A stretch of 64,000 bases of DNA from an uncultured Enterobacteriaceae bacterium (GTDB taxonomy: Bacteria > Pseudomonadota > Gammaproteobacteria > Eutrophobiales > Eutrophobiaceae): contig CAZGBJ010000001.1 in assembly GCA_964523895.1 (NCBI GenBank), positions 93,633 to 157,632 on the forward strand, read 5' to 3'. Of the stretch, positions 1,566 to 57,980 are shown one piece after another. The notes under the pieces are model-generated. The model worked only from the letters and a program-made list of their open reading frames with translations, ran no database searches and was not told where the DNA came from. The number at the start of each line of letters is the position of its first letter. Position 1 is the first letter of the stretch. Both the position numbers and the translations under genes were made by a program.

Positions 1566-2534
1566 CTACTTATCTGACATATAGTCAGATGGCTTTATGT
1601 CCTTGATTAGGTAGAGCGGTCTATTTTTCGTTTCGTTAAACACTCGCCCAAGATATTCACCGATTATTCCCAAAGCTAATAACTGGATCCCACCAATAAA
1701 GGTAATTAATACGACTAATGAAGGGTAACCTGCGACAGGATCACCATACATCATCTTCTTAATGATAATAAAAATTGCAAAAGTCAGCCCGGCTATCGCA
1801 GATAAAACACCCAGCATTGAAGCAAGTCTTAATGGTAATACTGAAAACGAGGTTAATCCTTCGAAGGCTAAATCCAGTAAACCTAAAAACTTCCATTTTG
1901 TTTCACCCGCGTAGCGCTCATCACGCTCATAGGTAATTTCAGCTTGCGAATAACCTACCCACGCAAACAGACCTTTCATATAACGATGTTTTTCTCGTAA
2001 CTTTAATAACGCATCTAAAGCGTTTCTACTAAGCAACCTGAAGTCGCCCGTGTCCTTTGGTATTTTTATATCACTTAGTTGATATAGAAAACGATAATAG
2101 ACAAATGAAGAGATTTTTTTGAAGGCGCTTTCACCCCTTCTCTTGATTCTTTTTGCATTAACAACATCATATCCGTCACGCCATCGCTCAACCAATTTGG
2201 GGATCAACTCCGGGGGATCCTGCAAATCCGTATCGATAACAACAACAGCATCACCTGATGCATGATCCAATCCTGCAGTAAGCGCAATCTCTTTACCAAA
2301 ATTTCTGCTTAAATCAATAATGGAGATACGAGAATCGTTATTATGTTGCCTACTCATTATTTCAAGAGTGCCATCCTGACTACCGTCGTTCACATAGATA
2401 ATTTCCAGATCAAGGTTTAGAATTTTTACTGCATCCACAAGTCTTGAATAAAACTCATCCAGCCCTGCTTCCTCATTGTAAGCAGGCGCAACAATGGACA
2501 ATACTTTATTACTACCTGTCTCTTTACTTTCCAT
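1566..2534 (-). CDS. Family 2 glycosyltransferase, polyprenyl-phosphate sugar transferase type (GtrB/ArnC-like), C-terminal TM helices
   Basis: LSIVAPAYNEE...IIYVNDGSQDGT plus the DxD region and two C-terminal hydrophobic helices typical of undecaprenyl-phosphate glycosyltransferases. Confidence 0.8.
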   Translation of the reverse strand: MESKETGSNKVLSIVAPAYNEEAGLDEFYSRLVDAVKILNLDLEIIYVNDGSQDGTLEIMSRQHNNDSRISIIDLSRNFGKEIALTAGLDHASGDAVVVIDTDLQDPPELIPKLVERWRDGYDVVNAKRIKRRGESAFKKISSFVYYRFLYQLSDIKIPKDTGDFRLLSRNALDALLKLREKHRYMKGLFAWVGYSQAEITYERDERYAGETKWKFLGLLDLAFEGLTSFSVLPLRLASMLGVLSAIAGLTFAIFIIIKKMMYGDPVAGYPSLVVLITFIGGIQLLALGIIGEYLGRVFNETKNRPLYLIKDIKPSDYMSDK

Positions 2535-2536
2535 GT

Positions 2537-3268
2537 TTATATTTTTTCCGCAACAACTATGATTGAAAGACCAAAAGGAAAAGAAAAATGTCCTATTAAT
2601 CTGGATTCAAAACTGAATATTTTTTCAAGTAACATATTAATAAGTTTAGGCGGCATTTTTAGTTTATTGCCTTTTTCTGTTGGAAATATTTTTTGTTTTA
2701 TTCTGTCAACAAGTGCTAGTGGAAATAATAAAGAATTAAAGTATGAAATAGTATCTACTTTCCAGCCATTATTTTCTATCAAAATTTTTAAATATTTGGC
2801 AGTATATCTTCTTTTGTGATGGTGTTGTTCATCATGAGCAGTCCATAAAAATTGATATGCCGGAACAGTAATGATTAACTTTCCATTATCATTCACGTAG
2901 TCTCTTAATACAGCCAAACTCTCAGCGTCTTCATCAATATGTTCTAAAACATCCAATAGTACAATTAAATCGTTATTTTTATTTATCTCCGCTGGTATCT
3001 TATCTGGCAACGAACCTTTTGACACGTTGCCTATCTGTCTGGCTTTCGCTTTAAGTAAGGCATTATCATCTCGCTCCATAGCAGTAACATCACCGTATTT
3101 TGATAGGAAAGCAAGGTTGTCTCCATTACCACAACCCGCATCCATAATACGGGAAACTTTCTCAAGATCTAAGCTTTGAACAACACTATCAATTATTTTT
3201 CGTCGCGCAACAAACCACCAATGTTGAGTTTCAACGTTATACATTTCATCAAATAATTCATTTTCCAT
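2537..3268 (-). CDS. Class I SAM-dependent methyltransferase
   Basis: MDAGCGNGDNLAFL is a glycine-rich SAM-binding motif I. The likely true start is the internal MENELFDEMY (residue 33 of the track ORF), which removes the overlap with trmJ. Confidence 0.7.
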   Translation of the reverse strand: MENELFDEMYNVETQHWWFVARRKIIDSVVQSLDLEKVSRIMDAGCGNGDNLAFLSKYGDVTAMERDDNALLKAKARQIGNVSKGSLPDKIPAEINKNNDLIVLLDVLEHIDEDAESLAVLRDYVNDNGKLIITVPAYQFLWTAHDEQHHHKRRYTAKYLKILIENNGWKVDTISYFNSLLFPLALVDRIKQKIFPTEKGNKLKMPPKLINMLLEKIFSFESRLIGHFSFPFGLSIIVVAEKI

Positions 3269-3290
3269 AATAAAATCAGCGTTAATTCTT

Positions 3291-4016
3291 TTATTTATTT
3301 TTATCCTGAACTTTTGCCAAAATGCCGCGCAAGATATTACATTCATTTTCTTCCAGCTGCGCACGATTAAAAAGCCGACGCATTCTATGCATCAATAAAC
3401 GTGGATTTTCAGGATCATGAAAACCTATATCGACCATGCATTTTTCCAGATGCTGATAAAACATTTCCATTTTATCCTGATCAACTAATGGAGAATCGCT
3501 CTCCAGTAATTCATTGCTGCTATCACTAATACCTAACAGGTATATTTCATAACAAATAAGTTGCACTGCAGAAGCCAGATTTAGTGAACTATATTCTGTA
3601 TTAGCAGGAATTTGTAATACAAGATTACATAATTCCAGCTCTTCATTACTCAGACCTGAATTTTCTCTACCAAAGACAATAGCAACAGATGAATATTTAT
3701 TTTCAGAAATTGTTTTAGCGCATTCACGAGGAAAAACTAATGGCCATGGTATACTTCTGATGCGAGCACTCGTACCAATAACCAAATCACAATCTGAAAT
3801 TGCTTCTTTTAAATCCGAACAAACAGTTGCATTAGCCAAAATATCGTCGGCACCGGTCGCTCTTGCGGATGCTTCTGCAGAAGGAAAAATTTTGGGTTCA
3901 ACAAGATATAACTTTTCTTGTGACATCGTTTTCATTGCCCGTGCTGCCGCACCAATATTACCGGGATGGGTTGTTCCAACCAGCACTATCCTCGTTTTAT
4001 CTAAAATATTTTTCAT
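3291..4016 (-). CDS. trmJ: tRNA (cytidine/uridine-2'-O-)-methyltransferase TrmJ (SpoU family)
   Basis: IVLVGTTHPGNIGAAARAMKTM matches the E. coli TrmJ N-terminus. It is divergent from suhB as in E. coli. The start probably lies at the MKNILDKTRIV methionine. Confidence 0.85.
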   Translation of the reverse strand: MKNILDKTRIVLVGTTHPGNIGAAARAMKTMSQEKLYLVEPKIFPSAEASARATGADDILANATVCSDLKEAISDCDLVIGTSARIRSIPWPLVFPRECAKTISENKYSSVAIVFGRENSGLSNEELELCNLVLQIPANTEYSSLNLASAVQLICYEIYLLGISDSSNELLESDSPLVDQDKMEMFYQHLEKCMVDIGFHDPENPRLLMHRMRRLFNRAQLEENECNILRGILAKVQDKNK

Positions 4017-4083
4017 TCTTGTTATTGCTTCACTCATGACTACTGACAACGTAGAATAACTCGTTAACTATTTGGAGAACACT

Positions 4084-4854
4084 ATGCATCCCATGCTCAA
4101 TATCGCTATCCGTGCAGCCAGAGCTGCCGGCGACTCCATTGTACGTGAAATGGATCGCGTCAGTGATATTTCGATTGATATAAAAGGAAAAAATGATTTT
4201 GTAACGGAAGTTGATAGACAAGCTGAATATATTATCATCGAAACAATTAAGAAATCTTATCCTGATCATGCTTTTTTGGGAGAGGAATCAGGAAAATCGG
4301 GTGATAGTGAATACCTTTGGATCATTGATCCGCTCGATGGCACAACGAACTTCTTACATGGCATTCCCCATTTTGCTATTTCTATTGCTCTGCAATACAA
4401 AGATCGTCTTGATCAAGCCGTCATTTATGATCCGGTAAAACAAGAATTATTCACCGCATCACAAGGTAAAGGCGCGCAACTAAATGGTAAAAAAATCCGT
4501 GTTAGCCCACAAAAAACTCTTGATGGCGCACTGCTTGCCACCGGTTTTCCTTTTCGAGAAGACCAGGAAGTCGATAAGTTTATAAAAAGCTTTAAAGCAC
4601 TATTTCCGATGATAGCCGGTATCAGAAGAGCAGGCGTCGCATCACTTGATTTGGCTTATGTCGCAGCGGGAAGGTTCGATGGCTTTTGGGAATTTAGTTT
4701 AAAATCGTGGGATATTGCTGCAGGAGTATTAATTGTACAAGAAGCGGGGGGTATTAGTTCTGAAATAAATGGTGGATTGGATTATTTGGAAAGCGGCAAT
4801 ATTATTTCTGCAAACCCAAAATTAATGAAAGCTATATTACAAAATATATCTTAA
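4084..4854 (+). CDS. suhB: Inositol-1-monophosphatase SuhB
   Basis: MHPMLNIAIRAARAAG matches the E. coli SuhB N-terminus, and the WIIDPLDGTTNF metal-binding motif is present. Confidence 0.9.
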   Translation: MHPMLNIAIRAARAAGDSIVREMDRVSDISIDIKGKNDFVTEVDRQAEYIIIETIKKSYPDHAFLGEESGKSGDSEYLWIIDPLDGTTNFLHGIPHFAISIALQYKDRLDQAVIYDPVKQELFTASQGKGAQLNGKKIRVSPQKTLDGALLATGFPFREDQEVDKFIKSFKALFPMIAGIRRAGVASLDLAYVAAGRFDGFWEFSLKSWDIAAGVLIVQEAGGISSEINGGLDYLESGNIISANPKLMKAILQNIS

Positions 4855-4897: not shown

Positions 4898-5368
4898 TTA
4901 CTGATAAGTACTTAAACTTAAGTTATTCCTTTCTAATAAATCATAACGGATACCTTCAATTCCTTGTAATCTTTTCAAGATATGAAACCTCTCCTGACTT
5001 TGAGACTCCTCAGGAAAGACACTCTTTAAAAGAGAGGATATTTGAACATAGGTAAATTCATTTTCAGGATTACCCGCCAAAATTCGTATATACAGTTGAA
5101 TTTTTGGAAGCCCATCTTGTTCAGCTTCTACTAATTGGATCCACATATTATCAAGTTTATCATTCGTCATTTCAGCCAATGTCTTAACACGAAGTTTTTC
5201 TACAGCTTCAAATTGACCTGTGAAGAACAATTTATTATGTGACCTCATATAATTACGATATTTATCAACCTCTGTCTCTGCATTAAGCCACCATGCAAAT
5301 ACAAAGCAGATTACAATGGTACAAGCTAAAATTAGATGACCTATACAAAGGCCTTTATATTTAAACAT
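4898..5368 (-). CDS. Hypothetical membrane-anchored protein (156 aa), last gene of the CotH/VTC operon
   Basis: Single N-terminal hydrophobic helix (LCIGHLILACTIVICFVFAWW). Sits 30 nt downstream of the CotH gene on the same strand. No recognisable family. Confidence 0.45.
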   Translation of the reverse strand: MFKYKGLCIGHLILACTIVICFVFAWWLNAETEVDKYRNYMRSHNKLFFTGQFEAVEKLRVKTLAEMTNDKLDNMWIQLVEAEQDGLPKIQLYIRILAGNPENEFTYVQISSLLKSVFPEESQSQERFHILKRLQGIEGIRYDLLERNNLSLSTYQ

Positions 5369-5398
5369 TATCTTATGTTTTCATCATTCCTATTAAAC

Positions 5399-8101
5399 TT
5401 ACTTTAATGAGTGATATGCACTTTGTTTTATATGGTTTATTGATTCCTCGCCAACAACAATATCTTTTTCAGTAATGCCATGAAGACTCTTGCCAGATAT
5501 TACTCCTCCTCGACTATATCGCGCGTTCTTTCGATAAAGTGCTATGGCATTCCCCTTTTCAACTGAAAATTTAATATCCTCAACACGTACAATGGATTGA
5601 TCTTTAACCGCAATACCCAATACACAATCAGCAAGCTGACTCTTTTCAACTCTCACTTCACTTGCTTCACCGACTGAAATACATTTATCGCCGGTACCAT
5701 TGATATCAACATGACTAATTACTGATTTTGAATTCATCAGATCAATTGCATCATTTCCAATATTGTAAAAACGCGAATTAGATACAGAGACATCAACAAT
5801 ATCCATATCCAATGCATCAAAGGCTGTGTTATTAAATTCACAATTTCTAATGGCGCCACTACTATATGTGACATGCAAAGCATCATCGCCTACGGAATTA
5901 TTACTTATGAAACAGTTCTCTAATTGAAAAGAATTAACATAATGAATATTAAGCTGCCCCGGATAATTAATCAGGTTTCGTTGTGCAATAGAACCGCCAT
6001 TAACGTTAATATGAGCCATGACGCTTCCAGATGCTTCTTTACCTTGTATCACAATACTGCCCCAGGCCTGATCCAGATCTTTTTGTTTAAACTTGATTGG
6101 TGATTCTTCTGTTCCCTTTGCTATTACTTTTCCATAAAAAAATAGAGAACTATTCTTTGCCATCTTAAACACCGTCCCGGGCAAAATGTTTACTGTTTGC
6201 TCTTTTGTGAAATAGCGATCCTGATTAACTTCTATTTCACCCGATAATACAATCTCACTCACTACTTTTTCTTGTGTAAGTAATTCCCATGGATGAAATG
6301 AGGCTGTGTCAGCATCATCAGGTAAATTATCTACTTTTTCAATTGTTATGATATTTGAAGTGATTGCATTTTTACCTGTTAGTTTTTTTGTTTTAATTAG
6401 ATCAGCACTCTTCGCTCCTGTGATTAAGTATTCATAATGCAATGGTGATTGTTCATATGATTCATAAACTTTTGTTTCAGCCCCGCCTATTACATTATTT
6501 GATTGGTAACTTTCTGTTACTGCAATACCTGGATATAATCGATCTAATTGTTTTTTGTTTAGTACAGGATAAATCTCACCCTCATAGATGCGGAATAATT
6601 TAATTTCCTTATCGTTTGAATTTGACACAATTGACCAAGGATTAAAATCGACCGGACTGTTACCAAATATCGAAATAGAAACTTGAAACTGATCCTTAAT
6701 ATTCTCTTTAATATGATAATTTGCAGAAATAAAATTTAACCTATTCGCTATAAGTCCATATCGATAGTTATAAACTGTTTTCAACGTTTCGATAGCATTA
6801 CTATACTCATTCATAGAAAAAGGTAGAACCTTACCAAAACGACCAAATTTAAAATAATCATCGGGTTGTTGACGATAAGGATCCGCTGCTAGTTCACGTG
6901 CAATAATGTCATCTGCTTTATCAAGCATGTCAGCAACATAATCTACAGTAAACCTTTTCCGCAAATCATAAACTGTTAGATCATGTTCATATCTTAATAC
7001 AGGATTTAATAGTATTTGTTTATAGAGAGGTGTTACCGAAAGCGATTCGGATGTACTCCAAAAACGAATATCCCATTCAATCGGTTCAAATTTTCCTAAA
7101 TAGGGATCAAAATAAATTCGATGGTTATGAAATAAATCATGATGATCACTGCCAACTAATTTATCCAATGCCCAAAAAAGATAAAATTTATTCTTATCAA
7201 AGTAAGTGTCAAAATTTTTCATAAACATTAGTGGGTCTGGATCGTGAACCGATTTTATAAACAGCTCGATATCTTCACGGTTACCTGTTGATTCTATATT
7301 TCTTGAGGCATCTTTCTTCCATAATCTACTGTCAAACCATAATTCCGGTCTACCACGATTTACATAGACTTTCTCAGAAAGTCCTCTTTCTATTCCAAAT
7401 GGATCCGGCATATATATGGTATCGCCCGAATATATACTGCCGGGCATTCGATTATTTTTACGTAAAAATGATTCATCTATTTTACTTAGAAAAAAATGTA
7501 ATCCATTTGTTTCATTATTTATGAAGACACGTGCAGGAAAATATTCCGGCGTTAATAATCCAATCGAGCGCGCCATATCATAACTCACCCAGTCTGTAAC
7601 AGTGGCCATGGTTGATGGATTAACTAAATTAAACTGACGCTCATTACGATAAGTACTAAAAGGTGGGAGCTTGATTCTGATTGATTTTTTTTCATATAAC
7701 CAATGTAAATCCATTCCTCCCCGATAACGAAACTGAGCTTCACTTAAAAATTCCGGTCGATCTACCTTTAGATGACCTTTAACAAATTTACCTTTAGCAC
7801 TTTCAGGCAAGTTCGATACTAATGACTCTAAATCTTTATTATCAGCATATAAGTAAAATGAAGGTAGGCTAGTCTGTGCAGGTAGTTGTTTAATTGTTAA
7901 CTGTTGGTAATGGCGCTCTATATATTCGTTAATAAAATAGCGTAAATGGTCTAATGTATAACTTTCTTCAATAGCCATTACCTTCTTATATTGCATCATC
8001 TCTCTTACGCCACCAAACACAATACTACTTAATATAGTTAAGATGAATAGCGCTGAAAGAATAGGCCAATATGAACAATGTCTCGAGTGACTAATATTCA
8101 T
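5399..8101 (-). CDS. CotH kinase family protein with N-terminal signal anchor and C-terminal right-handed parallel beta-helix (PbH1) domain
   Basis: Central region RYRGGMDLHWLYEKKSIRIKLPP...QFNLVNPSTMATVTDWVSYDMARSIGLLTPEYFPARVFINNETNGLHFFLSKIDESFLRKNN...IYSGD fits the CotH domain pattern. The C-terminal ~200 aa carry repeated NxxxGDDAL, NTAFDALDMD, NIGNDAIDLM and GTGDKCISVG units typical of pectate-lyase-like beta-helices. The N-terminal hydrophobic segment is WPILSALFILTILSSIVFGG. Confidence 0.75.
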   Translation of the reverse strand: MNISHSRHCSYWPILSALFILTILSSIVFGGVREMMQYKKVMAIEESYTLDHLRYFINEYIERHYQQLTIKQLPAQTSLPSFYLYADNKDLESLVSNLPESAKGKFVKGHLKVDRPEFLSEAQFRYRGGMDLHWLYEKKSIRIKLPPFSTYRNERQFNLVNPSTMATVTDWVSYDMARSIGLLTPEYFPARVFINNETNGLHFFLSKIDESFLRKNNRMPGSIYSGDTIYMPDPFGIERGLSEKVYVNRGRPELWFDSRLWKKDASRNIESTGNREDIELFIKSVHDPDPLMFMKNFDTYFDKNKFYLFWALDKLVGSDHHDLFHNHRIYFDPYLGKFEPIEWDIRFWSTSESLSVTPLYKQILLNPVLRYEHDLTVYDLRKRFTVDYVADMLDKADDIIARELAADPYRQQPDDYFKFGRFGKVLPFSMNEYSNAIETLKTVYNYRYGLIANRLNFISANYHIKENIKDQFQVSISIFGNSPVDFNPWSIVSNSNDKEIKLFRIYEGEIYPVLNKKQLDRLYPGIAVTESYQSNNVIGGAETKVYESYEQSPLHYEYLITGAKSADLIKTKKLTGKNAITSNIITIEKVDNLPDDADTASFHPWELLTQEKVVSEIVLSGEIEVNQDRYFTKEQTVNILPGTVFKMAKNSSLFFYGKVIAKGTEESPIKFKQKDLDQAWGSIVIQGKEASGSVMAHINVNGGSIAQRNLINYPGQLNIHYVNSFQLENCFISNNSVGDDALHVTYSSGAIRNCEFNNTAFDALDMDIVDVSVSNSRFYNIGNDAIDLMNSKSVISHVDINGTGDKCISVGEASEVRVEKSQLADCVLGIAVKDQSIVRVEDIKFSVEKGNAIALYRKNARYSRGGVISGKSLHGITEKDIVVGEESINHIKQSAYHSLK

Positions 8102-9162
8102 AAATTGCCTTTGAATTCAGACTTGGCAACTTTACGAAAATCATTCCGCTTTGAATATCTGCCTAAAACAAGATAAATGAAAAGAAAGCCGATCATACTG
8201 AGACAAACAATCTGCCCAATCGAAAATAGTATTGGATATTCTCGAAATGATGCACGACTGGGTAAAATGGTTGTTGCCAACTTATGATATTCAGCATAAC
8301 CAAACCATGACGAGGATTTGATGTGAGGGAAATATAACTGGAATAATTTATCTGCTTGGCAAAAAAACATGTTGAGACTGCTTTCTTCATGTGCAGTAAG
8401 AATGTTTTCTTTATTAGAAAATATTTCGAACTTTAATAAAAACGAAGTGTTTGGCATACCAAAATCAACCACGCTGAACAAACTTAATGTGACAGCCCCA
8501 TATGGAATTCCAAAATGCGTTACTAAATTAACATTCTCAATTGATTTTAGCTTTAAAGACTCTGAAATTAGTTCCGGCTTTTCTATGTTAACAGTAGATA
8601 GCATTTCAAAAAGTATCGGCCGTTCTTTTCGTTTTACTCGTCCAAAAAGAGAGTGTTTATCGAATGGAGTTAATTTTTTGTTATAACTTCTTACAGTAAA
8701 ACTTTTCATCCCTTCAGTTAACTCGCCACGATCGCTAAAGATTATTTCTTCTTTTTCTACTCTATTTTCCGGTAAACTTTCATTGAATACATGCATCAAT
8801 TCTTTATTCGTATTTAGTAATTCCAAATTATCAAAATCATAATAAGTAATGCTTCTGGTAAGTTCTCCATCATAAATAATTAGTCGTGGTTCTTTAAAGG
8901 GAACATCTCTAGAGATACCTCGAATAAAAGTGGATACTGCAGCAATATCCTTATTATCAATTAAGTAATAAGTGTTTTTGAATTTTTGATTCTGACAAAC
9001 ATTTGGAAAAGCATCATTAGCAAAGACATGAGTAACTGTACACGTCAAAATACAGACGGTGACTAAAAAGAGTATCTTTACTATAGAAAACAATGGTGAA
9101 CTTCTATACAGAAGATAAATCCTGATCGTAAGTAACCAGAGTAGCTCGAATAACACTATCAT
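8098..9162 (-). CDS. Hypothetical protein (354 aa) with N-terminal signal/anchor and C-terminal TM helix
   Basis: In-operon ORF between the DUF4956 and CotH genes. The 5' end overlaps the DUF4956 stop by 59 nt, so the true start is probably internal. The C-terminal LFSIGQIVCLSMIGFLFIYLVLG is a TM helix. No family recognised. Confidence 0.5.
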   Translation of the reverse strand: MIVLFELLWLLTIRIYLLYRSSPLFSIVKILFLVTVCILTCTVTHVFANDAFPNVCQNQKFKNTYYLIDNKDIAAVSTFIRGISRDVPFKEPRLIIYDGELTRSITYYDFDNLELLNTNKELMHVFNESLPENRVEKEEIIFSDRGELTEGMKSFTVRSYNKKLTPFDKHSLFGRVKRKERPILFEMLSTVNIEKPELISESLKLKSIENVNLVTHFGIPYGAVTLSLFSVVDFGMPNTSFLLKFEIFSNKENILTAHEESSLNMFFCQADKLFQLYFPHIKSSSWFGYAEYHKLATTILPSRASFREYPILFSIGQIVCLSMIGFLFIYLVLGRYSKRNDFRKVAKSEFKGNL

Positions 9163-9820
9163 TAGTTTGCAGTTTATTCATAAAACCAGTTTGCTCTTGA
9201 TTTGTTTTTATCTCCAATGTGATCTCAGTTCCTGCAGCAGAAACTGTTTTTGATTTTATTGAAAAGAGATCAGCTTTTTGCTTTATTTCATTGAGAACAT
9301 TGTCTTCTTTTGATGAATCAGATAGTTGGATCACTAATAAAAACGTATCGGCTACGTCTTTTCCAGAACGTGTTAAAAACAGCATAAAAACTGCAATCAT
9401 AATAGAGCCAACAATTGAAATATTAAAATAACCAACGCCATTAGCAATACCAACACTAATCGCCCAAAATAGAAAAACGAGATCCATACTATCTTTAACC
9501 GGCGTTCTAAAACGAACAATCGACAATGCACCAACCATACCTAAAGAAAGTATCAAATTGCCACTGATCGTCATTATGATCATGGATGTCACTGTACTCG
9601 CTAAAACTAACGAGATATTAAAACTGCGTTGATATAAAACGCCCTGATATGTTTTCTTATAAATAAAAAATATAAACATGCCTACAAAAAATGACATCGA
9701 TATATTAAGCAGAATATTTAATGTTGTAATTCTATCCGTACTACCCATAGACATTGCGATAAAACTTTTCTGTAGTACGTCTGCAAAGGTAACTTGATCC
9801 ATGATTAGTTGTCCTCCCAT
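9104..9820 (-). CDS. DUF4956-like polytopic membrane protein
   Basis: 238 aa with four hydrophobic helices followed by a soluble C-terminal domain. Its gene order matches the conserved VTC/DUF4956/CotH triad. Confidence 0.6.
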   Translation of the reverse strand: MGGQLIMDQVTFADVLQKSFIAMSMGSTDRITTLNILLNISMSFFVGMFIFFIYKKTYQGVLYQRSFNISLVLASTVTSMIIMTISGNLILSLGMVGALSIVRFRTPVKDSMDLVFLFWAISVGIANGVGYFNISIVGSIMIAVFMLFLTRSGKDVADTFLLVIQLSDSSKEDNVLNEIKQKADLFSIKSKTVSAAGTEITLEIKTNQEQTGFMNKLQTNDSVIRATLVTYDQDLSSV

Positions 9821-10518
9821 TTACGGACTTTATGGAAACGTCTGGCTAATGTGTATTTACTAATAGCCATTCTTTCGGAATTAATTGATGATAATACATT
9901 CTTTAAATATCCAGGAAAAAAATTGTCATACTTTATTTCCAGTATTTGTTTGCCTTCAAGAATTACTGGCATCATATCTTTTACAGATGAAAACAAATCA
10001 AGGTGGTTTATATTCGAACGTAAACCTTGATCAAACGTCACTCTAATATTAGAAACAGGCAAAACATAAGCAACTCGATTATATTCAACGATCACTTTAG
10101 GTTTATAGAGCTTTGTAACAAAGGTGGTGTAAATTTCATTAAGAACAGGGTTATTTTTACCTAATAGCACAGTATAGTTACCCAGACATACTTGTTCAGC
10201 CTCTTCTTTGCTAATTATCGCAACATCTTTTTTTACAATTTGCCCCTGTTTACGCTTTATCTCAAATTTTACAGACTCATTGGCTCCGTCACCGTAGGTA
10301 CGTAATCGAATTTTTTTTCGCAATAGATTTCCTGACTGCTTCTCATATAAGCATTCATCGTCGTGCGAATCAAAGTAAAGACTACGTACACGATAACCTT
10401 GTTGATTCTTACAGTATGCATCGACATCCATCAACGAATTTAATTGATGTAACGATCTGTCAGATTGAATCTCGTTGAGATAGAATTTTAATTCGTAACG
10501 TTTTGATTGTATTTGCAC
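9805..10518 (-). CDS. VTC-domain (polyphosphate polymerase-like, CYTH/triphosphate tunnel) protein
   Basis: KRYELKFYL...VRSLYFDSHDDECLY...KKIRLRTYGD...KFEIKRK...YNRVAY...IRVTFDQGL...ILEIKYD...ISKYTLARRF follows the VTC-domain pattern: basic tunnel residues and the RxR/KxK, RxTxD and EIK motifs. Confidence 0.75.
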   Translation of the reverse strand: MQIQSKRYELKFYLNEIQSDRSLHQLNSLMDVDAYCKNQQGYRVRSLYFDSHDDECLYEKQSGNLLRKKIRLRTYGDGANESVKFEIKRKQGQIVKKDVAIISKEEAEQVCLGNYTVLLGKNNPVLNEIYTTFVTKLYKPKVIVEYNRVAYVLPVSNIRVTFDQGLRSNINHLDLFSSVKDMMPVILEGKQILEIKYDNFFPGYLKNVLSSINSERMAISKYTLARRFHKVRKWEDN

Positions 10519-10725
10519 TGATATAAAGTAATTTATATTTTTATAAATTTTATTTAATAGTTAACAATTTCTTTAATTCTGAAGAAATATATCATGTATG
10601 ACTGACAATATATTTCAACTAGTACTTACGTTATTGATTTCACAATTACACTTTAATTTATTTCGTATTAGATGAAAGATTGAATAACTTAATGTTTTTT
10701 CACAATAATATCTTTAGTAAAAACA

Positions 10726-10786
10726 TGACAATCTTGTCACTTTATGACAACAAAAGTCATTTTTATCGATTCGATATCAGTCGAAT
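10726..10786. promoter_or_regulatory. Cluster of three palindromes, candidate enhancer/UAS sites: TGACAAtcTTGTCA, ATGACaacaaaaGTCAT, ATCGAtTCGAT/ATTCGAtatcagTCGAAT
   Basis: Perfect inverted repeats read directly at 10726-10739, 10744-10760 and 10765-10786. They lie 75-135 bp upstream of the sigma-54 -24/-12 element of pilin 1, which is the position expected for a bacterial enhancer-binding protein such as PilR. They could instead serve the divergent VTC operon. Confidence 0.3.
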
Positions 10787-10858
10787 TTATTTTTATATGT
10801 TTCATTAAATTATTGAATATATTAGGAATATTTATTATATCTGTGTTTCTACCAATTC

Positions 10859-10875
10859 TGGCATAAGCTCTGCTT
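10859..10875 (+). promoter_or_regulatory. Sigma-54 (RpoN) -24/-12 promoter for pilin gene 1
   Basis: TGGCATaagctcTGCTT has GG and GC at the canonical 10-nt spacing (consensus TGGCAC-N5-TTGCW). It lies ~95 nt upstream of the pilin ATG. The sigma-54-dependent activator PilR is encoded nearby. Confidence 0.55.
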
Positions 10876-10968
10876 AACAGTAAACACCTCAAACTGAGGT
10901 AAAAACTATAGTTTTTGTAATCAGTTTTAAACTTATATAAACAAATCCATACAAACGGAGATTTTATA

Positions 10969-11388
10969 ATGAAACAAATGAAGAAAATCACTAGTACAAG
11001 TGAAAGAGGTTTTACTCTTATCGAATTAATGATTGTGGTTGCTATTATCGGTATTCTTGCCGCAGTAGCAATTCCGTCATATCGTGCATATGTTGCTGAA
11101 TCACACGGTGGTGCAGCAATGAAAGGTGTAGGTGCTTATGTATCTCAATCTCAAGTATGTGTCGAAACAGGTGTTGGCTGTACTGAATTAACTACCAGTG
11201 CTGGTGCTGATGCTGCGGTCACTTTAACCTCTGTTTCTGAAGGCGCTACTAGCTCAACCGTCGCATATAACGAAGGTGCCTGTATTATTACTGCTACCCT
11301 TGTTGCTGCATCTGTAACCTATGTTGCAACTGTTGGTACTGCAGGTGGTGCAACAGCTGCACAGTGTCAATCTGGCGCAGGTCTATAA
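10969..11388 (+). CDS. pilA: Type IVa major pilin (PilA-like), copy 1
   Basis: Leader ends ...SERG followed by [24 protein letters not shown], the class III signal peptide and N-terminal helix. GGAG RBS. Four Cys residues (one C-x6-C pair plus a C-terminal disulfide loop). Ser/Thr/Ala/Gly-rich C-terminal domain. Confidence 0.9.
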
Positions 11389-11632: not shown

Positions 11633-12040
11633 ATGAATAATAAACACTCATCTCAACAGGGTTTTACCTTAATTGAATTAATGATCGTTGTTGCGATTAT
11701 CGGTATTCTTGCCGCAGTAGCAATTCCATCATATCGTGCTTATGTTGCTGAATCACATGGTGGTGCAGCTATGAAAGGGGTCAGTGCTTATGTGGCTCAG
11801 TCTCAAGCTTGCATTGAAACAGGTGTCGGTTGTACAGAATTAGCTACTAGTGCCGGTGGTGATGCAGCAGTCACTTTAACCTCTGTTTCTGAAGCTGCTA
11901 CCAGCTCAACCGTCGCATATAATGAAGGTGCTTGTATCGTTACTGCTACCCTCACTGCCGCATCTGTGGCCTATGTTGCAACTGTTGGTACTGCAGGTGG
12001 AGCAACAGCTGCACAGTGCCAAGCCGGAGCAGGTTTATAA
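11633..12040 (+). CDS. Type IVa major pilin, copy 2 (tandem paralog)
   Basis: Different leader ([10 protein letters not shown]). The mature protein differs from copy 1 at ~11 of 125 positions. AGGAG RBS. Confidence 0.9.
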
Positions 12041-12189: not shown

Positions 12190-13515
12190 TTATTTATTAA
12201 GACCATACTTATCTAAACGATAGCGTAAAACGCGTAAGCTTATACCCAATTTTTTCGCTGCCGCTGTTCGATTCCATTTAGTCTGCTCAAGCACTTCCAG
12301 AATAGCGTTTCGTTCTATGTCATCTAGTTGATTGACCAATGAAGCCGATTTCAGCTTATCTTGCTCGTTTTCGCCCTTACTTTTCTTGTCACTTAACAAT
12401 AAACCTTCTGGTTCAATTACATCGCTTTCAGCAAGCGTGAGTGCACGCTCAAGAATATTTTCCAGTTCACGAATATTGCCAGGGAAGTGATAAGTTTGAA
12501 GCTTACTTAAAGCCTCTGTAGATAAACGCGCTATCTGTTCTCCCGACTTATCTGCCATTTGCAACAAAATATGATTCACCAGGGAAACAATATCTTCCAT
12601 ACGATCTCTCAAAGCAGGAACATGAATTTCTATAACATTAATTCGATAATATAAATCCTTGCGAAAACTTTCCTGTTCCACCATCGCAGATAGTTGCTTA
12701 TGTGTTGCGCTTAAAATGCGTATGTCGATTTCTATTTCTTCTTGCGCGCCGACAGGTCGAATGCGTTTCTCCTGAATAGCACGTAATAATTTAACCTGAA
12801 GATGTAAGGGTAAATCCGCTACTTCATCAAGAAATAAAGTCCCTCCTTCAGCTGTATGAAGTAAACCTTCTTTATCAGAATCTGCGCCGGTAAAACTGCC
12901 TTTTTTGTGTCCAAAAAATTCACTTTCCATTAATTCATGCGGAATAGCACCACAATTAACCGGAACAAATGGTTTGTTAGTACGTGGACCAATATCATGA
13001 ATCATTCTTGCTACCAATTCTTTACCTGTACCCGATTCGCCGCTGATATGTATTGGTGCCTGACTACGAGCAACTTTATTAATCGTGTTATGCAATTCTC
13101 GAATGACGGTACTATCACCGACGATCGTTGCCTTTGAAGTATTATCACTTAAACCTGAATGCAAAGCATTTTGCACCACTGTTCTTAATGAATTTAAATC
13201 AATGGGTTTTGTCAGGAAATCAAACGCACCATATTTTAATGCCTGGATAGCACTATCCATACTTCCATGAGCGGTGATTACAGCAATAGGTATTTGTGGA
13301 AAATTCGCTTGTAATTCATTAACAAATTCTACACCATTGCCGTCGGGCAATTTCATATCTGTCAGACACAAATCAAATTTATATTGATCTAACAATAATC
13401 GCGCCTTGGCAAGATCCTCTGCGCAATGACAATCAATTTGCATCCGTTGCAGTGTTATCTGCAACAGCTCCCGAATATCTGGCTCATCATCAATGATTAA
13501 CGCAAGTTGCGACAT
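12190..13515 (-). CDS. pilR: Sigma-54-dependent response regulator PilR (NtrC family)
   Basis: REC domain (IIDDEPDIRELL...DMKLPDGNG), AAA+ sigma-54 activation domain (GESGTGKELVARMIH, GAFTGA) and a C-terminal Fis-type HTH. Very close to the P. aeruginosa PilR N-terminus. Confidence 0.9.
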   Translation of the reverse strand: MSQLALIIDDEPDIRELLQITLQRMQIDCHCAEDLAKARLLLDQYKFDLCLTDMKLPDGNGVEFVNELQANFPQIPIAVITAHGSMDSAIQALKYGAFDFLTKPIDLNSLRTVVQNALHSGLSDNTSKATIVGDSTVIRELHNTINKVARSQAPIHISGESGTGKELVARMIHDIGPRTNKPFVPVNCGAIPHELMESEFFGHKKGSFTGADSDKEGLLHTAEGGTLFLDEVADLPLHLQVKLLRAIQEKRIRPVGAQEEIEIDIRILSATHKQLSAMVEQESFRKDLYYRINVIEIHVPALRDRMEDIVSLVNHILLQMADKSGEQIARLSTEALSKLQTYHFPGNIRELENILERALTLAESDVIEPEGLLLSDKKSKGENEQDKLKSASLVNQLDDIERNAILEVLEQTKWNRTAAAKKLGISLRVLRYRLDKYGLNK

Positions 13516-13517
13516 AT

Positions 13518-15131
13518 TTATACCAGTTCACCTTGTTTGTCAGTGTGCATAAAATTCAGTCTAAATGTTGTGCCATATTCTGAAGTTGAGTGTAAATTTA
13601 AATTTGCCTGATTGGCCTCGCATAATTCACGAGCAAGATATAATCCCAAACCCGAGCCCTGTGTCTCTGTTGTAAAAAAAGGTTCGAAAAGATGTTCTTT
13701 AATTTTTTCGGACACTCCAGAACCCGTATCAATGATATCAATATACGGTCTTTGTATTTCCTCGTTAATATCACAAGATAAAGTAATAACGGGCTTGCTC
13801 TGACTATAACGTATCGCATTCTCACAAAGATTCCAGACAACCTGATGTAATTGAGATGGATCCATTCTGACAAGAATATTTTCTCTCATTACCTCAAGTG
13901 CGATATCTCCGCTGGATAAATTATGCCTGGATTCAAATTCGTTAATAAATTTTTTCATCCAGGAAATTATTTCAAAATCTTCTAACGTTGCCTGATCTCT
14001 GCGACTAATACTTAGTACATTTTCAATAATATTGTTAACACGAAGAGAATGCTCATTAATAATTTCAGTTAAGCGTTTATCCTCCAGGCAGATCGTATCA
14101 GATTCTTGCAATAACTGACCTGCATGATTAATTGCGCCCAAAGGGTTCCTGACTTCATGTGCAATACTTGCTGTTAATCTTCCTAATGAAGCAAGTTTTA
14201 GATGCTGGGCTCGCTGTCTCAACCTCGCTATATCTTCAAGGAAAACTAAGATCTGATAATTTATTCCTAATGTTAATTTAATAAATGAAACCTGCAACTC
14301 GGCTTCATATTCATTTAGTTTAATAATTACATTTTGCATTCCATTGTTATTTAGCCAGTCATCTATATAAGCTTTCAGATAGTTATTTATAAAATGGAAA
14401 ATTTTATGTGTGTCTCCTTGCTGTTGCCCCAATAACTGTTTAGATGATTCATTAATAAGTAATACATTCATATTGCTATCAAGAACAATAATCCCTGATT
14501 GCATGCGCTGAACAATATGCTCATTTAATTTTGCTAATTCATTTATTTCTATAGCCTGCTGCTCAGCCAATGCTTCCGTTTCGCGTACTCGCGCAGCTAA
14601 AAGATTTCCAATAATAGCTGTGATAAAGAATGTTGCACCGAGCATTCCAGCGTGAATGTAGTTTACCCTGTCGAAGAAGAGGACGAATTGAACATACAGC
14701 TCGTGTCCCAGGACAAATAGTGTTGCAATTGCAGCAAAAAGTATCGAGATCCTTCCTTCTCGTAGTATGCTACCACCAGCAACTGCAATAATGATTAACA
14801 GACCAAAACCGCTACCAAGACCACTGCTCGAGTACATCAATAATCCCAACATAATGATGTCTAGCAGGACATGAAATGCAATTTGAATATTAAATCCGGG
14901 GCTCTGCTGCAGAATAAACCAGCTAAAAATGAAAGCCGCAAATAAATAAATGTGGCTAGTTACTGAAAAAAAATGAGCATTCATACTACCCAATGGCGCA
15001 GGCAGTTGGCCTATGTAGACCAAAATGACAAATAAACCGGAAAGCAAAACTCGATAATTATTAAAATACCGTAATGCACGCCAATCCATGGATTTGGTCT
15101 GCTTCCGTATTATTTTATTAGCTTTATCCAT
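13518..15131 (-). CDS. pilS: Sensor histidine kinase PilS
   Basis: Six N-terminal TM helices, an H-box (ASIAHEVRNPL) and an HATPase domain (N, G1 and G2 boxes). Lies immediately upstream of pilR, with 2 nt between them. Confidence 0.85.
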   Translation of the reverse strand: MDKANKIIRKQTKSMDWRALRYFNNYRVLLSGLFVILVYIGQLPAPLGSMNAHFFSVTSHIYLFAAFIFSWFILQQSPGFNIQIAFHVLLDIIMLGLLMYSSSGLGSGFGLLIIIAVAGGSILREGRISILFAAIATLFVLGHELYVQFVLFFDRVNYIHAGMLGATFFITAIIGNLLAARVRETEALAEQQAIEINELAKLNEHIVQRMQSGIIVLDSNMNVLLINESSKQLLGQQQGDTHKIFHFINNYLKAYIDDWLNNNGMQNVIIKLNEYEAELQVSFIKLTLGINYQILVFLEDIARLRQRAQHLKLASLGRLTASIAHEVRNPLGAINHAGQLLQESDTICLEDKRLTEIINEHSLRVNNIIENVLSISRRDQATLEDFEIISWMKKFINEFESRHNLSSGDIALEVMRENILVRMDPSQLHQVVWNLCENAIRYSQSKPVITLSCDINEEIQRPYIDIIDTGSGVSEKIKEHLFEPFFTTETQGSGLGLYLARELCEANQANLNLHSTSEYGTTFRLNFMHTDKQGELV

Positions 15132-25978: not shown

Positions 25979-27694
25979 ATGTCGACACCTGCAAAAAAAA
26001 TAAATCTGAGTGGGCTAGCACGGAAACTCGTGCAAGATGGCCTGCTTGATGAAGAAAAAGCGCAAAGTACGCATGAAGAGGCACTAAAGAAGAAAAGACC
26101 TTTTGTTAGTCTTCTCGTAGAAAACAAACTTGTCCCCAGTAGCAGCATTGCATTGGCGGCGGCCCAGGAATTTGGTGCGCCACTGGTTGATATCGATTTA
26201 CTGGAAATTGACCCTGATGTCATCAAGCTGGTCAAAGAAGACCTCATCAAGAAACACCATGCCCTACCCATTTTCAAACGCGGTAAGCGCCTTGCTGTTG
26301 CTGTCGCTGATCCAACCAATATCCTGGCTCTTGACGAAATTAAATTTGCAACCAGCTTAGGTACTGACGCTATTGTTGTAGAAGAAGATAAACTCACAAA
26401 GACCATCGAGAAAGCCATAGAAGAAGCAGAGGGTGGCTTGGGCGACATGGATGGTGACGATTTCGATGATCTCGATGATTTGGAAGTTGCTGAAGATGGC
26501 CCACAAGAGGAGGATGACTCTGACGTTGACGATGCACCAGTAGTACGTTTTGTCAATAAATGTTTGCTTGATGCCATTAAAAAAGGCGCGTCAGATTTAC
26601 ATTTTGAACCCTATGAAAAAATGTACCGCGTACGCTTTCGTGTAGACGGTGTTTTAATGGAAGTAGCAAAACCTCCCTTGAGCCTTAATTTGAAAATAGC
26701 GGCACGCATAAAAGTAATGTCACGAATGGACGTATCAGAACGACGTGTTCCACAAGACGGACGTATCAAATTAAAACTCTCAAAAACAAAAGCGATTGAT
26801 TTTCGTGTTAGTACTTGCCCAACACTGTTCGGTGAAAAAACCTGTATGCGAATTCTGGATTCAGATGCCGCCGCATTACAAATAGATCAGTTGGGATATG
26901 AAGACCACCAGAAAGAAATGTTTTTAGACAACTTGCATAAACCTTATGGCATGTTCCTTGTTACCGGGCCAACGGGTAGTGGTAAAACTGTTTCGCTTTA
27001 TACTGGCATCAATATCCTGAATCAGGTAGATATCAATATTTCCACTGCCGAAGATCCTGTTGAAATTAATCTCCCCGGCGTCAACCAGGTTCAGGTTGAT
27101 GAGAAACAAGGCATGACATTCGATAAAGCCTTGAAAGCTTTTTTAAGACAGGATCCGGACATTATTCTGGTAGGGGAAATACGCGATTTGGGTACAGCTT
27201 CTATTGCGGTAAAAGCAGCACAGACAGGACATATGGTAATGTCGACATTGCATACCAATGATTGCCCGCAAACCCTGACCCGTTTACAAGACATGGGCAT
27301 ACAGGCTTTTGCCGTGGCAACCAGTATTAACCTTATTACTGCACAACGATTACTCCGACGCCTAAAGGAAGATAATCGGGCAGTGATAGAAATGCCTGAC
27401 GAGACCCTAAGAGAAGAAGGCTTCCCTGAAGAAATGATTAAAGAGGGCATTACTCTGTATGGCCCTGCTGAAGATACAGAAGATAATCCAGGCTACAAAG
27501 GGCGAGCAGGCATCTATCAAGTTATGCCCATATCAGATGACATGAAACGTTTGATTATTGAAGGTGCTAACGCGGTACAGTTGGCCGATCAAGCTTCGTC
27601 AGAGGGTATATGGGACATCCGTAAATCAGGTTTAATGAAGGCGGCCGCTGGCGTCACCAGTATGGTCGAAGTTAATCGAGTAACCGTAGAGTAG
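25979..27694 (+). CDS. pilB: Type IV pilus assembly ATPase PilB
   Basis: Walker A GPTGSGKT, Asp and His boxes, tetracysteine region and N-terminal GSPII domains. Confidence 0.95.
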   Translation: MSTPAKKINLSGLARKLVQDGLLDEEKAQSTHEEALKKKRPFVSLLVENKLVPSSSIALAAAQEFGAPLVDIDLLEIDPDVIKLVKEDLIKKHHALPIFKRGKRLAVAVADPTNILALDEIKFATSLGTDAIVVEEDKLTKTIEKAIEEAEGGLGDMDGDDFDDLDDLEVAEDGPQEEDDSDVDDAPVVRFVNKCLLDAIKKGASDLHFEPYEKMYRVRFRVDGVLMEVAKPPLSLNLKIAARIKVMSRMDVSERRVPQDGRIKLKLSKTKAIDFRVSTCPTLFGEKTCMRILDSDAAALQIDQLGYEDHQKEMFLDNLHKPYGMFLVTGPTGSGKTVSLYTGINILNQVDINISTAEDPVEINLPGVNQVQVDEKQGMTFDKALKAFLRQDPDIILVGEIRDLGTASIAVKAAQTGHMVMSTLHTNDCPQTLTRLQDMGIQAFAVATSINLITAQRLLRRLKEDNRAVIEMPDETLREEGFPEEMIKEGITLYGPAEDTEDNPGYKGRAGIYQVMPISDDMKRLIIEGANAVQLADQASSEGIWDIRKSGLMKAAAGVTSMVEVNRVTVE

Positions 27695-27699
27695 ATATT

Positions 27700-28920: not shown

Positions 28921-29029
28921 AATAATAATAAATGTATCGTTACTGAAGTTTCAGCAAAATAAATATATTTCTAAAAATATTTTTTTAGAGCTGTTTTTTA
29001 CGTGACCAACCAAGCCACCGAGAATATTC

Positions 29030-29908
29030 GTGCCTATAATCATTGAGTTATTTCATACATCCCCTGCCTTTTATCTCAGTACTATCTTCGTATTAGGGCT
29101 ACTCGTTGGAAGTTTTCTGAATGTTGTTATTTTTCGTTTACCTACAATGATGGAAAGCGACTGGCAGCAACAATGTTGTGAGTTACTTGATATAGATGAT
29201 GCTAAATATAAAAAAGAAAACGAAGGTTTTAATCTCATTACTCCTCGCTCGCGTTGCCCGTCTTGCAATCATCAAATTAGCGCAATGGAGAACATCCCTG
29301 TCATTAGTTATTTATTTTTAAAAGGGAAATGTAGTAATTGCGAAAATAAAATTTCGATTCGTTATCCATTAATTGAATTAGTAAGCGCAATAACTGTAAC
29401 TATTGTTGCATTTTATTTTGGTGTTACATTACAAGCGTTATTTGCAATATGTCTTACCTGGGCACTCATTGCCTTAAGCATGATTGATTTTGATCATCAA
29501 TTACTTCCTGATGATATTACACTACCCTTCTTATGGCTTGGAATTATCATAAACTTGTTTGGTATTTTTACAGATATTGAATCAAGTATACTCGGTGCAA
29601 TATTTGGCTACGGCTCATTATGGCTTGTCTATATCTCATTTAAATTAGTTACTGGTAAAGAAGGAATGGGGCATGGTGATTTTAAATTATTAGCCGTATT
29701 AGGTGCGTGGTTTGGTTGGCAGGCACTTCCTCTAATTATTATATTATCCTCTGTCGTTGGTGCCAGCATTGGCATTTTATTAATGATCTTTAAATCATAT
29801 AACAGAACAACAGCAATACCATTTGGACCCTACTTGGCAATTGCTGGCTGGACATCTATGTTATGGGGACCGTACATCATGTCTGCTTATTTAAATGCAG
29901 TAATTTAA
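29030..29908 (+). CDS. pilD: Prepilin peptidase/N-methyltransferase PilD
   Basis: CPSC...CSNC zinc motif plus polytopic membrane helices with the catalytic Asp residues. Confidence 0.9.
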   Translation: MPIIIELFHTSPAFYLSTIFVLGLLVGSFLNVVIFRLPTMMESDWQQQCCELLDIDDAKYKKENEGFNLITPRSRCPSCNHQISAMENIPVISYLFLKGKCSNCENKISIRYPLIELVSAITVTIVAFYFGVTLQALFAICLTWALIALSMIDFDHQLLPDDITLPFLWLGIIINLFGIFTDIESSILGAIFGYGSLWLVYISFKLVTGKEGMGHGDFKLLAVLGAWFGWQALPLIIILSSVVGASIGILLMIFKSYNRTTAIPFGPYLAIAGWTSMLWGPYIMSAYLNAVI

Positions 29909-57836: not shown

Positions 57837-57980
57837 GCTGTGCCCTCTTTAAGAATAATTTCTTGGATTAGAATAAATGTTTAATTTTTAAAACGATACA
57901 ACAATATAGCAAGCATCATAATTGTTCATTCTTTAAACATCTTTTTGCCATTATGTTTCGAAAATAGTAAATAAAAAAAG

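Follow-up and report, generated by a model that had tools for sequence, protein, structure and literature searches.

The closest described relatives of the locus studied here are three adjacent genes, coding for a VTC-domain protein, a DUF4956 membrane protein, and a CotH protein, which have been described together with DUF4832 as accessory genes of Gram-positive pel loci (Whitfield et al. 2020, 10.1101/768473). The same triad has also been noted in NELoc-2 of C. perfringens (PMC2879425). In S. intermedius, deletion of SIR_1592 (DUF4956) or SIR_1594 (CotH) decreases Pel-dependent aggregation by more than 50% and changes Pel levels; the authors called the mechanism unknown and reported finding the three-gene synteny in Pel loci only (PMC12345266, 2025). 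We have analyzed a triad of this kind in a 64-kb stretch of DNA from an uncultured gammaproteobacterium (contig CAZGBJ010000001.1; hereafter the window), where it forms part of a five-gene operon, g1 to g5, at positions 4898-10518. This operon is a five-gene, Gram-negative, beta-helix-fused, CYTH-assisted, pilin-linked form of the triad known from Gram-positive pel loci. A preliminary description of this DNA had held that nothing was shown for the triad, a statement that is out of date given the pel-locus description and the two S. intermedius deletions with phenotypes. We propose, tentatively and with somewhat less than even confidence, that the five genes make up one envelope-spanning, polyphosphate (polyP)-fed phosphoryl-transfer machine, the target of which is probably the pilin or a glycan on the pilin.

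The listing of open reading frames (ORFs) places five co-directional genes on the minus strand at 4898-10518, exactly as first described. They are tightly packed, with a 16-nt overlap between g1 and g2, a 59-nt overlap between g2 and g3, a 4-nt overlap between g3 and g4, and a 30-nt gap between g4 and g5. The original CotH, VTC, and DUF4956 assignments all score above their Pfam cut-offs. The topology of the earlier model is likewise retained by prediction, with a soluble VTC protein, a polytopic DUF4956 protein, and a CotH protein behind an N-in signal anchor. A protein identical to g4 has been found on metagenome contigs only, in the same gene order, which points to a marine gammaproteobacterium as the host.

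Recurrence of the triad in unrelated bacteria had been stated earlier and is now borne out by a linkage sample of 79 genome loci, which were fetched by the g4 family and in which the five families were called with iterated hidden Markov models (HMMs). Both VTC and DUF4956 lie beside CotH in 61 of the 79, and of the 39 loci in which CotH has 3 kb or more on each side, 35 contain both. Four gene orders have been observed: VTC-DUF4956-CotH, CotH-VTC-DUF4956, DUF4956-CotH-VTC, and a divergent arrangement. The hosts span more than 12 phyla and include Gamma- and Alphaproteobacteria, Campylobacterota, Planctomycetota, Gemmatimonadota, Bacteroidales, Clostridia, Elusimicrobia, Myxococcota, Bdellovibrionota, Acidobacteriota, Verrucomicrobiota, and two archaea; many of them are sulfur oxidisers of sediments or vents. 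The triad co-occurs far beyond chance, and because the adjacency survives shuffling of the gene order, it is strong evidence that the three proteins serve one process. In metagenomes, DUF4956 follows VTC in 73 of 80 loci fetched with VTC, a sample biased to the window's clade since its search profile was made from 18 closer sequences. CotH is also found in these loci, with few exceptions, where the contig is long enough.

Outside the gammaproteobacterial clade, the neighbours of the triad include glycosyltransferases of families GT4 (16 loci) and GT2 (13 loci), NAD-dependent sugar epimerase/dehydratases (13 loci), and Metallophos proteins, and on annotated RefSeq plasmids the triad lies within exopolysaccharide clusters. 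The Metallophos (calcineurin-like) phosphoesterases stand beside the triad in Gemmatimonadota and Planctomycetota (L063:12850-14010, L043:12667-14178, and nine more loci, the L numbers being those of our locus sample). One of these triad-adjacent proteins has a purple-acid-phosphatase N-terminal domain. As phosphatases, the Metallophos proteins could form the counterpart of the proposed kinase and polyP system. In the archaeal loci, a CotH/beta-helix gene is followed by VTC (L038, archaeon SMAG_U8126) or by VTC and DUF4956 (L041, Candidatus Iainarchaeum), so that the module seems to cross domains unless the binning is wrong. Additional genes are inserted into the triad in some lineages. In Gemmatimonadota and some Planctomycetota (L060, L063, L066, L068, L072, L073, and L077, for example at L077:8092-9264), the place that g3 has here, between DUF4956 and CotH, is taken by a protein of ~390 aa with weak TPR similarity, and a 216-aa protein lies between VTC and DUF4956 in four Planctomycetota-type loci (L029:827-1477). 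Both look like lineage-specific fourth components, a role in which Metallophos is found as well.

The g1 gene (9805-10518, 237 aa) codes for the VTC protein, which matches the Pfam VTC family (PF09359) with E=4.3e-38 and 131.6 bits (cut-off 23) over profile positions 1-230 of 235. A profile of 42 g1 relatives aligns over its full length with the catalytic domain of yeast Vtc4 (E=5.5e-20); the same profile reaches Vtc2 at 1e-9 and the inactive Vtc2/3 at 1e-9 to 1e-7. Only the family profile reached Vtc4, as a single-sequence phmmer search of g1 against the PDB gave no match. The residues R7, K11, R71, R73, E86, K88, K97, Y146, R148, R159, E194, K196, S220, and K221 are invariant in the 42 sequences and align, in this order, with Vtc4 R196, K200, R264, R266, E279, K281, K294, Y359, R361, R373, E426, K428, S457, and K458. 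All of the Vtc4 tunnel residues are therefore kept in g1, and the equivalent of K200 is K11. We take K200 to be the catalytic lysine of Vtc4 and the other aligned positions to line its phosphate-binding tunnel, roles that were reportedly assigned by Hothorn et al. in 2009. The protein has no hydrophobic segment and is thus soluble, and neither Pfam nor hydropathy revealed an SPX domain, a VTC transmembrane domain, or any other domain. Judged by these alignments, g1 is closer to the catalytic Vtc4 than to the inactive Vtc2/3 and is a candidate cytoplasmic polyphosphate polymerase. A literature search found no published activity for a bacterial VTC-domain protein.

The DUF4956 protein is encoded by g2 (9104-9820, 238 aa) and matches Pfam DUF4956 (PF16316) with E=4.7e-11 and 43.2 bits (cut-off 30.6). 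It is also distantly MgtC-like, with a match to the NCBIfam MgtC/SapB family at 3.5e-4 over residues 83-218. All 42 of its relatives match DUF4956 and 34 of the 42 match MgtC, the latter weakly and below threshold (best 3.8e-7). The protein has four to five hydrophobic segments followed by a soluble C-terminal domain of ~85 aa. The motif VGALSIVRFRTPVKD is invariant in the 42-member family, and the positive-inside pattern predicts that the loop carrying it faces the cytoplasm. The g2 gene adjoins g1 in 61 of 79 genome loci and 73 of 80 metagenome loci. We regard g2 as a candidate membrane conduit for, or partner of, g1.

The third gene, g3 (8098-9162, 354 aa), codes for a second tunnel-fold protein that was overlooked in the preliminary description. 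It has no match in Pfam or NCBIfam and does not reach the CYTH threshold. As modelled, g3 is an eight-stranded triphosphate-tunnel (CYTH) fold, and remote relatives that are positive for CYTH point to the same assignment. Homologues of g3 number 12 by word index and 119 when 1.84 billion representatives are searched with a profile. Members of the family begin with a signal-peptide-like segment and have a pair of invariant cysteines, a C-terminal transmembrane (TM) helix, and a basic tail, and on these grounds g3 is predicted to be an exported, membrane-anchored, periplasmic domain. The remote members P0243 and P0215 have the same signal-peptide/TM architecture, match Pfam CYTH (1.5e-11 and 4e-5), and contain ExExK; together with P0247, which also reaches CYTH, they carry ENE[YVI]K. 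P0247 (JGI sample 3300071358, on a 33.9-kb contig) is a protein of 1196 aa that combines a lipoprotein-like signal, CotH, a beta-helix-like region, CYTH with ExExK, and a C-terminal TM helix. The fusion assigns CYTH and CotH to the same compartment and the same process. Within 7 kb, the P0247 gene has neither VTC nor DUF4956 as a neighbour, and a class A penicillin-binding protein gene adjoins it.

In g3 itself the ExExK motif is missing, that strand reading FKNTYY, and KFEIF replaces ExExE, while the basic positions K177, R178, R181, and K244 are kept. Since the metal-binding ExExK is lost, g3 is more likely a phosphate-chain binder than an enzyme, as far as these residues can tell. A recent duplication of g1 as the origin of g3 was considered and rejected, as family-against-family comparison with hhalign gave a probability of 0.4% and no similarity. 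The g3 family has been found only in Gammaproteobacteria and Campylobacterota (22 genome loci), and an enlarged g3 profile identified no further g3-like genes in the loci of other phyla. Where g3 starts is ambiguous. With the long ORF the overlap with g2 is 59 nt, the public call P0001 (316 aa) begins 38 codons later, and in most relatives the protein begins at a position corresponding to residue 12 (MIRIY...); in each case there is a hydrophobic segment N-terminal to the tunnel domain.

The largest gene, g4 (5399-8101, 900 aa), codes for an N-terminal anchor, a CotH domain (residues ~80-456), beta-sandwich linkers, and a right-handed beta-helix (residues ~615-885). The matches to Pfam are CotH PF08757 at 8.3e-22 and 78.5 bits (cut-off 23.8) and Beta_helix PF13229 at 2.8e-10. 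The AlphaFold2 model has a pLDDT of 90.6 and superimposes in Foldseek on B. cereus CotH 5jda with E=4e-15 and a TM-score of 0.79, and phmmer links g4 to 5JD9 at 8.7e-6. Foldseek also shows that the beta-helix resembles GH87 glucanase, alginate lyase, the AlgE/AlgG epimerases, and tailspikes. The motif HHDxFHNHxxYFD...FEPIEWD is conserved in 76 g4-family sequences; within it N326 is invariant and D344 aligns with the metal-binding Asp of the "WD" pair. In B. subtilis CotH, mutants of the catalytic D228 and the metal-binding D251 are inactive (PMC7821199), and the numbering was tentatively transferred to B. cereus CotH by the identical 23-residue spacing. A single N-terminal TM helix is present in 69 of the 76 sequences, and 61 of these have no acidic residue in the N-terminal flank. 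This pattern fits an N-in signal anchor, and therefore the kinase and the beta-helix are predicted to be periplasmic. Residues 739-834 of g4 (window ~5600-5890) form an invariant acidic ladder on successive turns of the beta-helix (GDDALH, FDALDxD, GNDAxDL, GDKCIS, VKD). This ladder is conserved like the kinase motifs, which suggests a second active site or a metal- or polyanion-binding site.

The last gene, g5 (4898-5368, 156 aa), codes for a protein with no match in Pfam or NCBIfam. It has a TM helix at residues 7-25 followed by a TPR-like helical domain, predicted to be periplasmic, with the conserved motif "Y.R(I/L)LA.(N/D)P.RE.TY". The word index gave just three homologues; g5 was called in 15 genome loci and six metagenome loci. 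Among the genome loci it is restricted to the pilin-linked gammaproteobacterial form, apart from one weaker, TPR-repeat-like match in L113, which has another gene order. The g5-bearing loci with the gamma-type gene order come from Gammaproteobacteria wherever the host is named.

This form is linked to type IV pilin genes. In the window, two tandem, closely similar type IVa major-pilin paralogues with N_methyl domains are located on the plus strand at 10969-11388 (139 aa) and 11633-12040 (135 aa), and two pilin copies are also found beside the module in several related loci. In all 11 fully flanked gamma-type loci the distance from the five-gene module to a pilin gene is at most 1.5 kb, and none of 47 other loci has a pilin gene so close. 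Three arrangements have been observed. The pilin gene is divergent from g1 in the window and L005; it is co-directional and upstream in L006, L008, L009, L033, L034, and many metagenome contigs; and it is convergent and downstream of g5 in Thiodiazotropha, Microbulbifer, Sedimenticola, and Kangiella, with the module located between pilBC and pilA. The culturable Microbulbifer rhizosphaerae CECT 8799 (L011) carries the complete g1-g5-pilin set. A single in-place inversion could account for the difference between the second arrangement and the third, so the pilin-linked loci are not independent. At 43-50% g4 identity the pilin gene is still linked, even though the other flank is different. The pilins adjacent to the module belong to several sequence types; those of the window contain four cysteines and 19-21% Ser+Thr. 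The suggestion that the neighbouring pilins are candidate substrates is strengthened by this gene linkage. Genes beside pilA are a recognised site of pilin-modifying accessory genes (PMC11841053).

From the identities and folds of the products, their conserved residues, their predicted topology, and the gene linkage, we infer polyP synthesis, its translocation, its use by CotH, and the substrate as follows. On the cytoplasmic face, g1 would polymerise phosphate from ATP. The membrane protein g2, whose invariant basic loop RFRTPVKD is predicted to be cytoplasmic, would dock g1 and would move the phosphate chain, or just the phosphates at its end, through the inner membrane. On the periplasmic side g3 would receive or hold the phosphate chain. 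With this chain as its phosphoanhydride donor, since the periplasm lacks ATP, the kinase g4 would then phosphorylate a surface polymer that is bound to the beta-helix, and g5 would be a TPR-like adaptor that scaffolds the assembly. In the gammaproteobacterial lineage the target would most likely be the type IV major pilin or a glycan attached to the pilin; in other phyla the core would serve exopolysaccharide loci. The idea of a polyP-fed kinase, put forward in the preliminary description, survives the checks that were run and gains two new supports, the predicted periplasmic CYTH partner and the strict pilin linkage. Its strongest version, in which a prokaryotic VTC-like machine independent of polyphosphate kinase (PPK) hands polyP to the outside and CotH and the exported CYTH protein use it instead of ATP, here on the pilin, is possible but somewhat doubtful.

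Several observations weigh against the proposed polyP-fed machine. We know of no CotH or Fam20-type kinase that uses polyP. DUF4956 is unrelated to the VTC channel domain, and a pore role for it is only proposed. In the pairwise alignment the catalytic Asp of CotH falls on H321 of g4, and the nearly invariant D322 is adjacent, an offset of one residue. The VTC/DUF4956 pair is missing in four well-flanked CotH/beta-helix loci, and these together with P0247 indicate that the kinase can exist without a nearby donor system. With regard to the substrate, the beta-helix resembles glycan-active enzymes and not protein binders, no shared Ser/Thr-rich acceptor tail or motif was found among the module-adjacent pilins, and the pilin linkage could be inherited synteny with one in-place inversion in a single clade. 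Finally, deletion of the VTC gene of S. intermedius has not been reported to change aggregation or Pel levels (PMC12345266).

The same machinery could instead act on an exopolysaccharide or envelope glycan, with g4 as a glycan kinase or phosphotransferase that holds the polymer by its beta-helix, and with the pilin adjacency being conserved synteny or co-regulation with no direct link of enzyme and substrate. This explanation, the main rival, is rather unlikely. In its favor are the similarity of the beta-helix to glucanases, alginate lyases and epimerases, and tailspikes, the frequency of GT4, GT2, and sugar epimerase/dehydratase genes as the commonest neighbours outside Gammaproteobacteria, the plasmid exopolysaccharide clusters, and the Gram-positive pel linkage with its Pel phenotypes. 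A GT2 and a methyltransferase gene also lie 1.5 kb from the operon, and a GT2 gene follows g5 directly in L007 and L036. Kinase-fold enzymes such as Fam20B and POMK are able to phosphorylate sugars. On the other hand, neither polysaccharide synthase genes nor polysaccharide export genes occur in the window within 10 kb, and the pilin adjacency holds in 11 of 11 loci of the clade and survives rearrangement, including a position inside the pilB-pilA interval.

Alternatively, extracytoplasmic polyP could itself be the end product, serving storage, cation binding, or a matrix, with CotH priming, anchoring, or regulating the chain and g3 capping or holding it. The presence of a Vtc4-like enzyme with all polymerase residues, of a periplasmic tunnel-fold protein whose lack of catalytic acidic motifs fits chain binding, of Metallophos genes beside the triad in Gemmatimonadota and Planctomycetota, and of many sediment and vent sulfur oxidisers among the hosts is compatible with this. 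So is a 2026 preprint that describes PPK-independent, exopolyphosphatase-resistant extracellular polyP in the B. cereus group, for which no synthase is known, but its authors report that the organism has no VTC4 homologue (PMC13484657). We consider polyP as the end product improbable, as it leaves unexplained both the pilin and polysaccharide neighbourhoods and an intact kinase with a glycan-type beta-helix as the most constant partner. Still less probable is a purely regulatory linkage, in which the VTC and MgtC-like proteins adjust cytoplasmic phosphate or ATP, like MgtC in Salmonella, and CotH uses another donor or is a non-catalytic, adhesin-like protein. The relationship of DUF4956 to MgtC is in line with this, as MgtC acts on ATP synthase and phosphate signalling according to work cited in PMC12345266, and so are the CotH/beta-helix proteins that occur without the VTC-DUF4956 pair and the fungal CotH proteins that reportedly act as invasins. 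However, the tight, order-shuffled adjacency across phyla and the translational coupling through overlaps of 4 to 59 nt speak for a single physical process, the catalytic positions of the kinase are conserved across 76 sequences, and the CYTH-CotH fusion joins phosphate-chain chemistry to an exported kinase.

The operon had also been described as AT-rich DNA inserted between suhB and the pilin locus, in line with horizontal acquisition. The AT-richness is real, the GC content being 0.336 at 4898-10518 and 0.389 in the window. For the five genes it is 0.327-0.343, against 0.399 +/- 0.034 in the 46 other genes (Mann-Whitney p=1e-4), which places them ~2 standard deviations below. Most of the deficit falls on codon positions 1 and 2 and hence reflects amino-acid composition. 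The GC content of third codon positions (GC3) is barely different, at 0.268 in the five genes against 0.302 +/- 0.048 (p=0.045). The core genes trmJ, secA, a methyltransferase gene, and dciA have equal or lower GC3. The gene with the lowest GC in the window is 37555-38016 (plus strand), which codes for a DciA helicase-loader homologue and has a GC of 0.307 and a GC3 of 0.18; as this is a core gene, low GC alone is no mark of foreign DNA here.

In the 64-kb window no tRNA gene and no integrase were found, and a search for att-like flanking repeats gave only short chance repeats. The order pilS-pilR-pilin-g1..g5-suhB-trmJ is kept in metagenome-assembled genomes whose g4 proteins share just 59-62% identity. 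Because GC3 is near background, island marks are missing, and synteny is kept at this identity, recent horizontal acquisition is not supported and that part of the preliminary description has to be withdrawn. A recently acquired AT-rich island dropped by chance between suhB and the pilin locus is hardly credible; the GC below that of the flanks and the occurrence of the triad on plasmids in Gram-positives would fit it, but the synteny is identical at 59-62% protein identity and the pilin linkage is kept down to 43-50%. Recent transfer explains the AT-richness less well than does the amino-acid composition of membrane and exported proteins that evolve fast. An ancient transfer of the operon is possible, as the triad is plasmid-borne in some Gram-positives.

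Beyond g5 lies suhB (4072-4854, Inositol_P at 2e-74), with trmJ on the same side. Beyond the pilins, on the minus strand at 12190-15131, are pilR (a sigma54 activator) and pilS (a sensor kinase), known from the Pfam annotation of the identical contig; these pilin regulators are co-located with the pilin and the module in relatives. The pilBCD genes are found at 25979-29908, 15 kb from the operon. The neighbours within 10 kb are purM, GT2, a methyltransferase, trmJ, suhB, the pilins, pilRS, sucCD, and nadE, and no pel genes (pelDEA(DA)FG) are contiguous with the operon in this range. The GT2 protein (1566-2534, minus strand) has C-terminal hydrophobic segments, and the SAM methyltransferase gene follows at 2537-3364 (minus strand), ~1.5 kb past the operon and beyond suhB and trmJ. 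In view of the GT2 homologues next to g5 in related loci, the pair may share a surface-modification neighbourhood with the module.

The divergent region between g1 and the first pilin gene, pilin A (10519-10968), has a GC of ~0.23. A sigma54-type -24/-12 element, TGGCAT-N5-CTGCT, is located at 10859-10873 on the plus strand, upstream of pilin A only; no matching element for the operon was found on the minus strand of 10519-10968, and scans for sigma70 promoters and terminators gave nothing above shuffled expectation. The rest of the window is core chromosome, with the dcw cluster, secA, dciA, clpB, and RNase P RNA. The class A RNase P RNA (57975-58316, minus strand, 347.6 bits) is the sole Rfam match in the 64 kb. 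A defence system was considered and rejected, since PADLOC returned just a sub-threshold PtuB (0.003).

The operon bears on two problems, namely how extracytoplasmic phosphorylation proceeds with no known ATP pool and where PPK-independent or extracellular polyP comes from. It unites a Vtc4-type polymerase, a membrane protein, an exported chain-binding fold, and an exported kinase, all by prediction, in one translationally coupled unit, and because the unit recurs in more than 12 phyla it is a testable candidate for both. The strict pilin linkage gives a specific substrate hypothesis that can be addressed through the mass of the pilin. If the proposal is true, it would provide an ATP-independent energy supply for extracytoplasmic phosphorylation that is general in bacteria and some archaea, and a new pilin modification that would extend the pilin-accessory systems from glycosylation to phosphorylation. 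The published view of the triad as Pel-specific is corrected even if the mechanism is wrong.

Among known systems, a eukaryotic counterpart is the yeast VTC complex (Vtc4/Vtc3/Vtc1; PDB 3G3Q, 7YTJ, 8I6V), with which the operon shares a Vtc4-type tunnel domain encoded beside a membrane protein and a second, probably non-catalytic tunnel-fold subunit (Vtc2/3 in yeast, g3 here). The earlier statement that the operon mirrors this complex holds for the architecture and fails for the components: the catalytic domain is here a separate, soluble protein with no SPX domain, and its membrane partner is the MgtC-like DUF4956 instead of the VTC TM domain. In addition, the second tunnel-fold protein is predicted to lie on the opposite, periplasmic side and has no detectable sequence similarity to g1. 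It also differs from the CYTH/triphosphate tunnel metalloenzymes YgiF, CyaB, ThTPase, and NeuTTM in being exported and anchored and in lacking ExExK and the C-terminal ExExE.

With Bacillus CotH (PDB 5JD9/5JDA), g4 shares the atypical kinase fold, and its conserved Asp/Asn/Asp fall on or next to the catalytic positions of CotH. Spore CotH works with ATP in the mother-cell cytoplasm on Ser-rich coat proteins, whereas g4 is predicted to be periplasmic, anchored, and fused to a beta-helix, and its host is a non-sporulating gammaproteobacterium, unlike the spore-coat setting. In its predicted location outside the cytosol, g4 is like the Fam20-type kinases of the secretory pathway. The position of the module recalls the P. 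aeruginosa pilin-accessory cassettes (tfpO, tfpW/X, tfpY, tfpZ; PMC11841053), which are also found directly beside the major pilin gene, and the module is likewise co-directionally downstream of the pilin in L006, L008, L009, L033, and L034. No TfpO/PilO O-antigen-ligase-like, TfpW GT-C, or TfpX/Y/Z domain is present in the five products by Pfam and NCBIfam. A five-gene machine takes the place of one gene here, its chemistry would be phosphorylation and not glycosylation, and one constant module stands beside pilins of varying type.

The closest match overall is with the pel triad of S. intermedius (SIR_1593, SIR_1592, SIR_1594) and the NELoc-2/Planococcus plasmid cassette, in which the same three domain families are adjacent. 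There too, DUF4956 has an MgtC-like TM part with a cytoplasmic C-terminal domain, and CotH is secreted. Our operon differs from them in that pel genes, DUF4832, and FN3 are absent, CotH is fused to a right-handed beta-helix, and extra CYTH-fold and TPR-like anchor proteins are present. The host is Gram-negative, and the conserved neighbour is a type IV pilin gene instead of a polysaccharide synthase.

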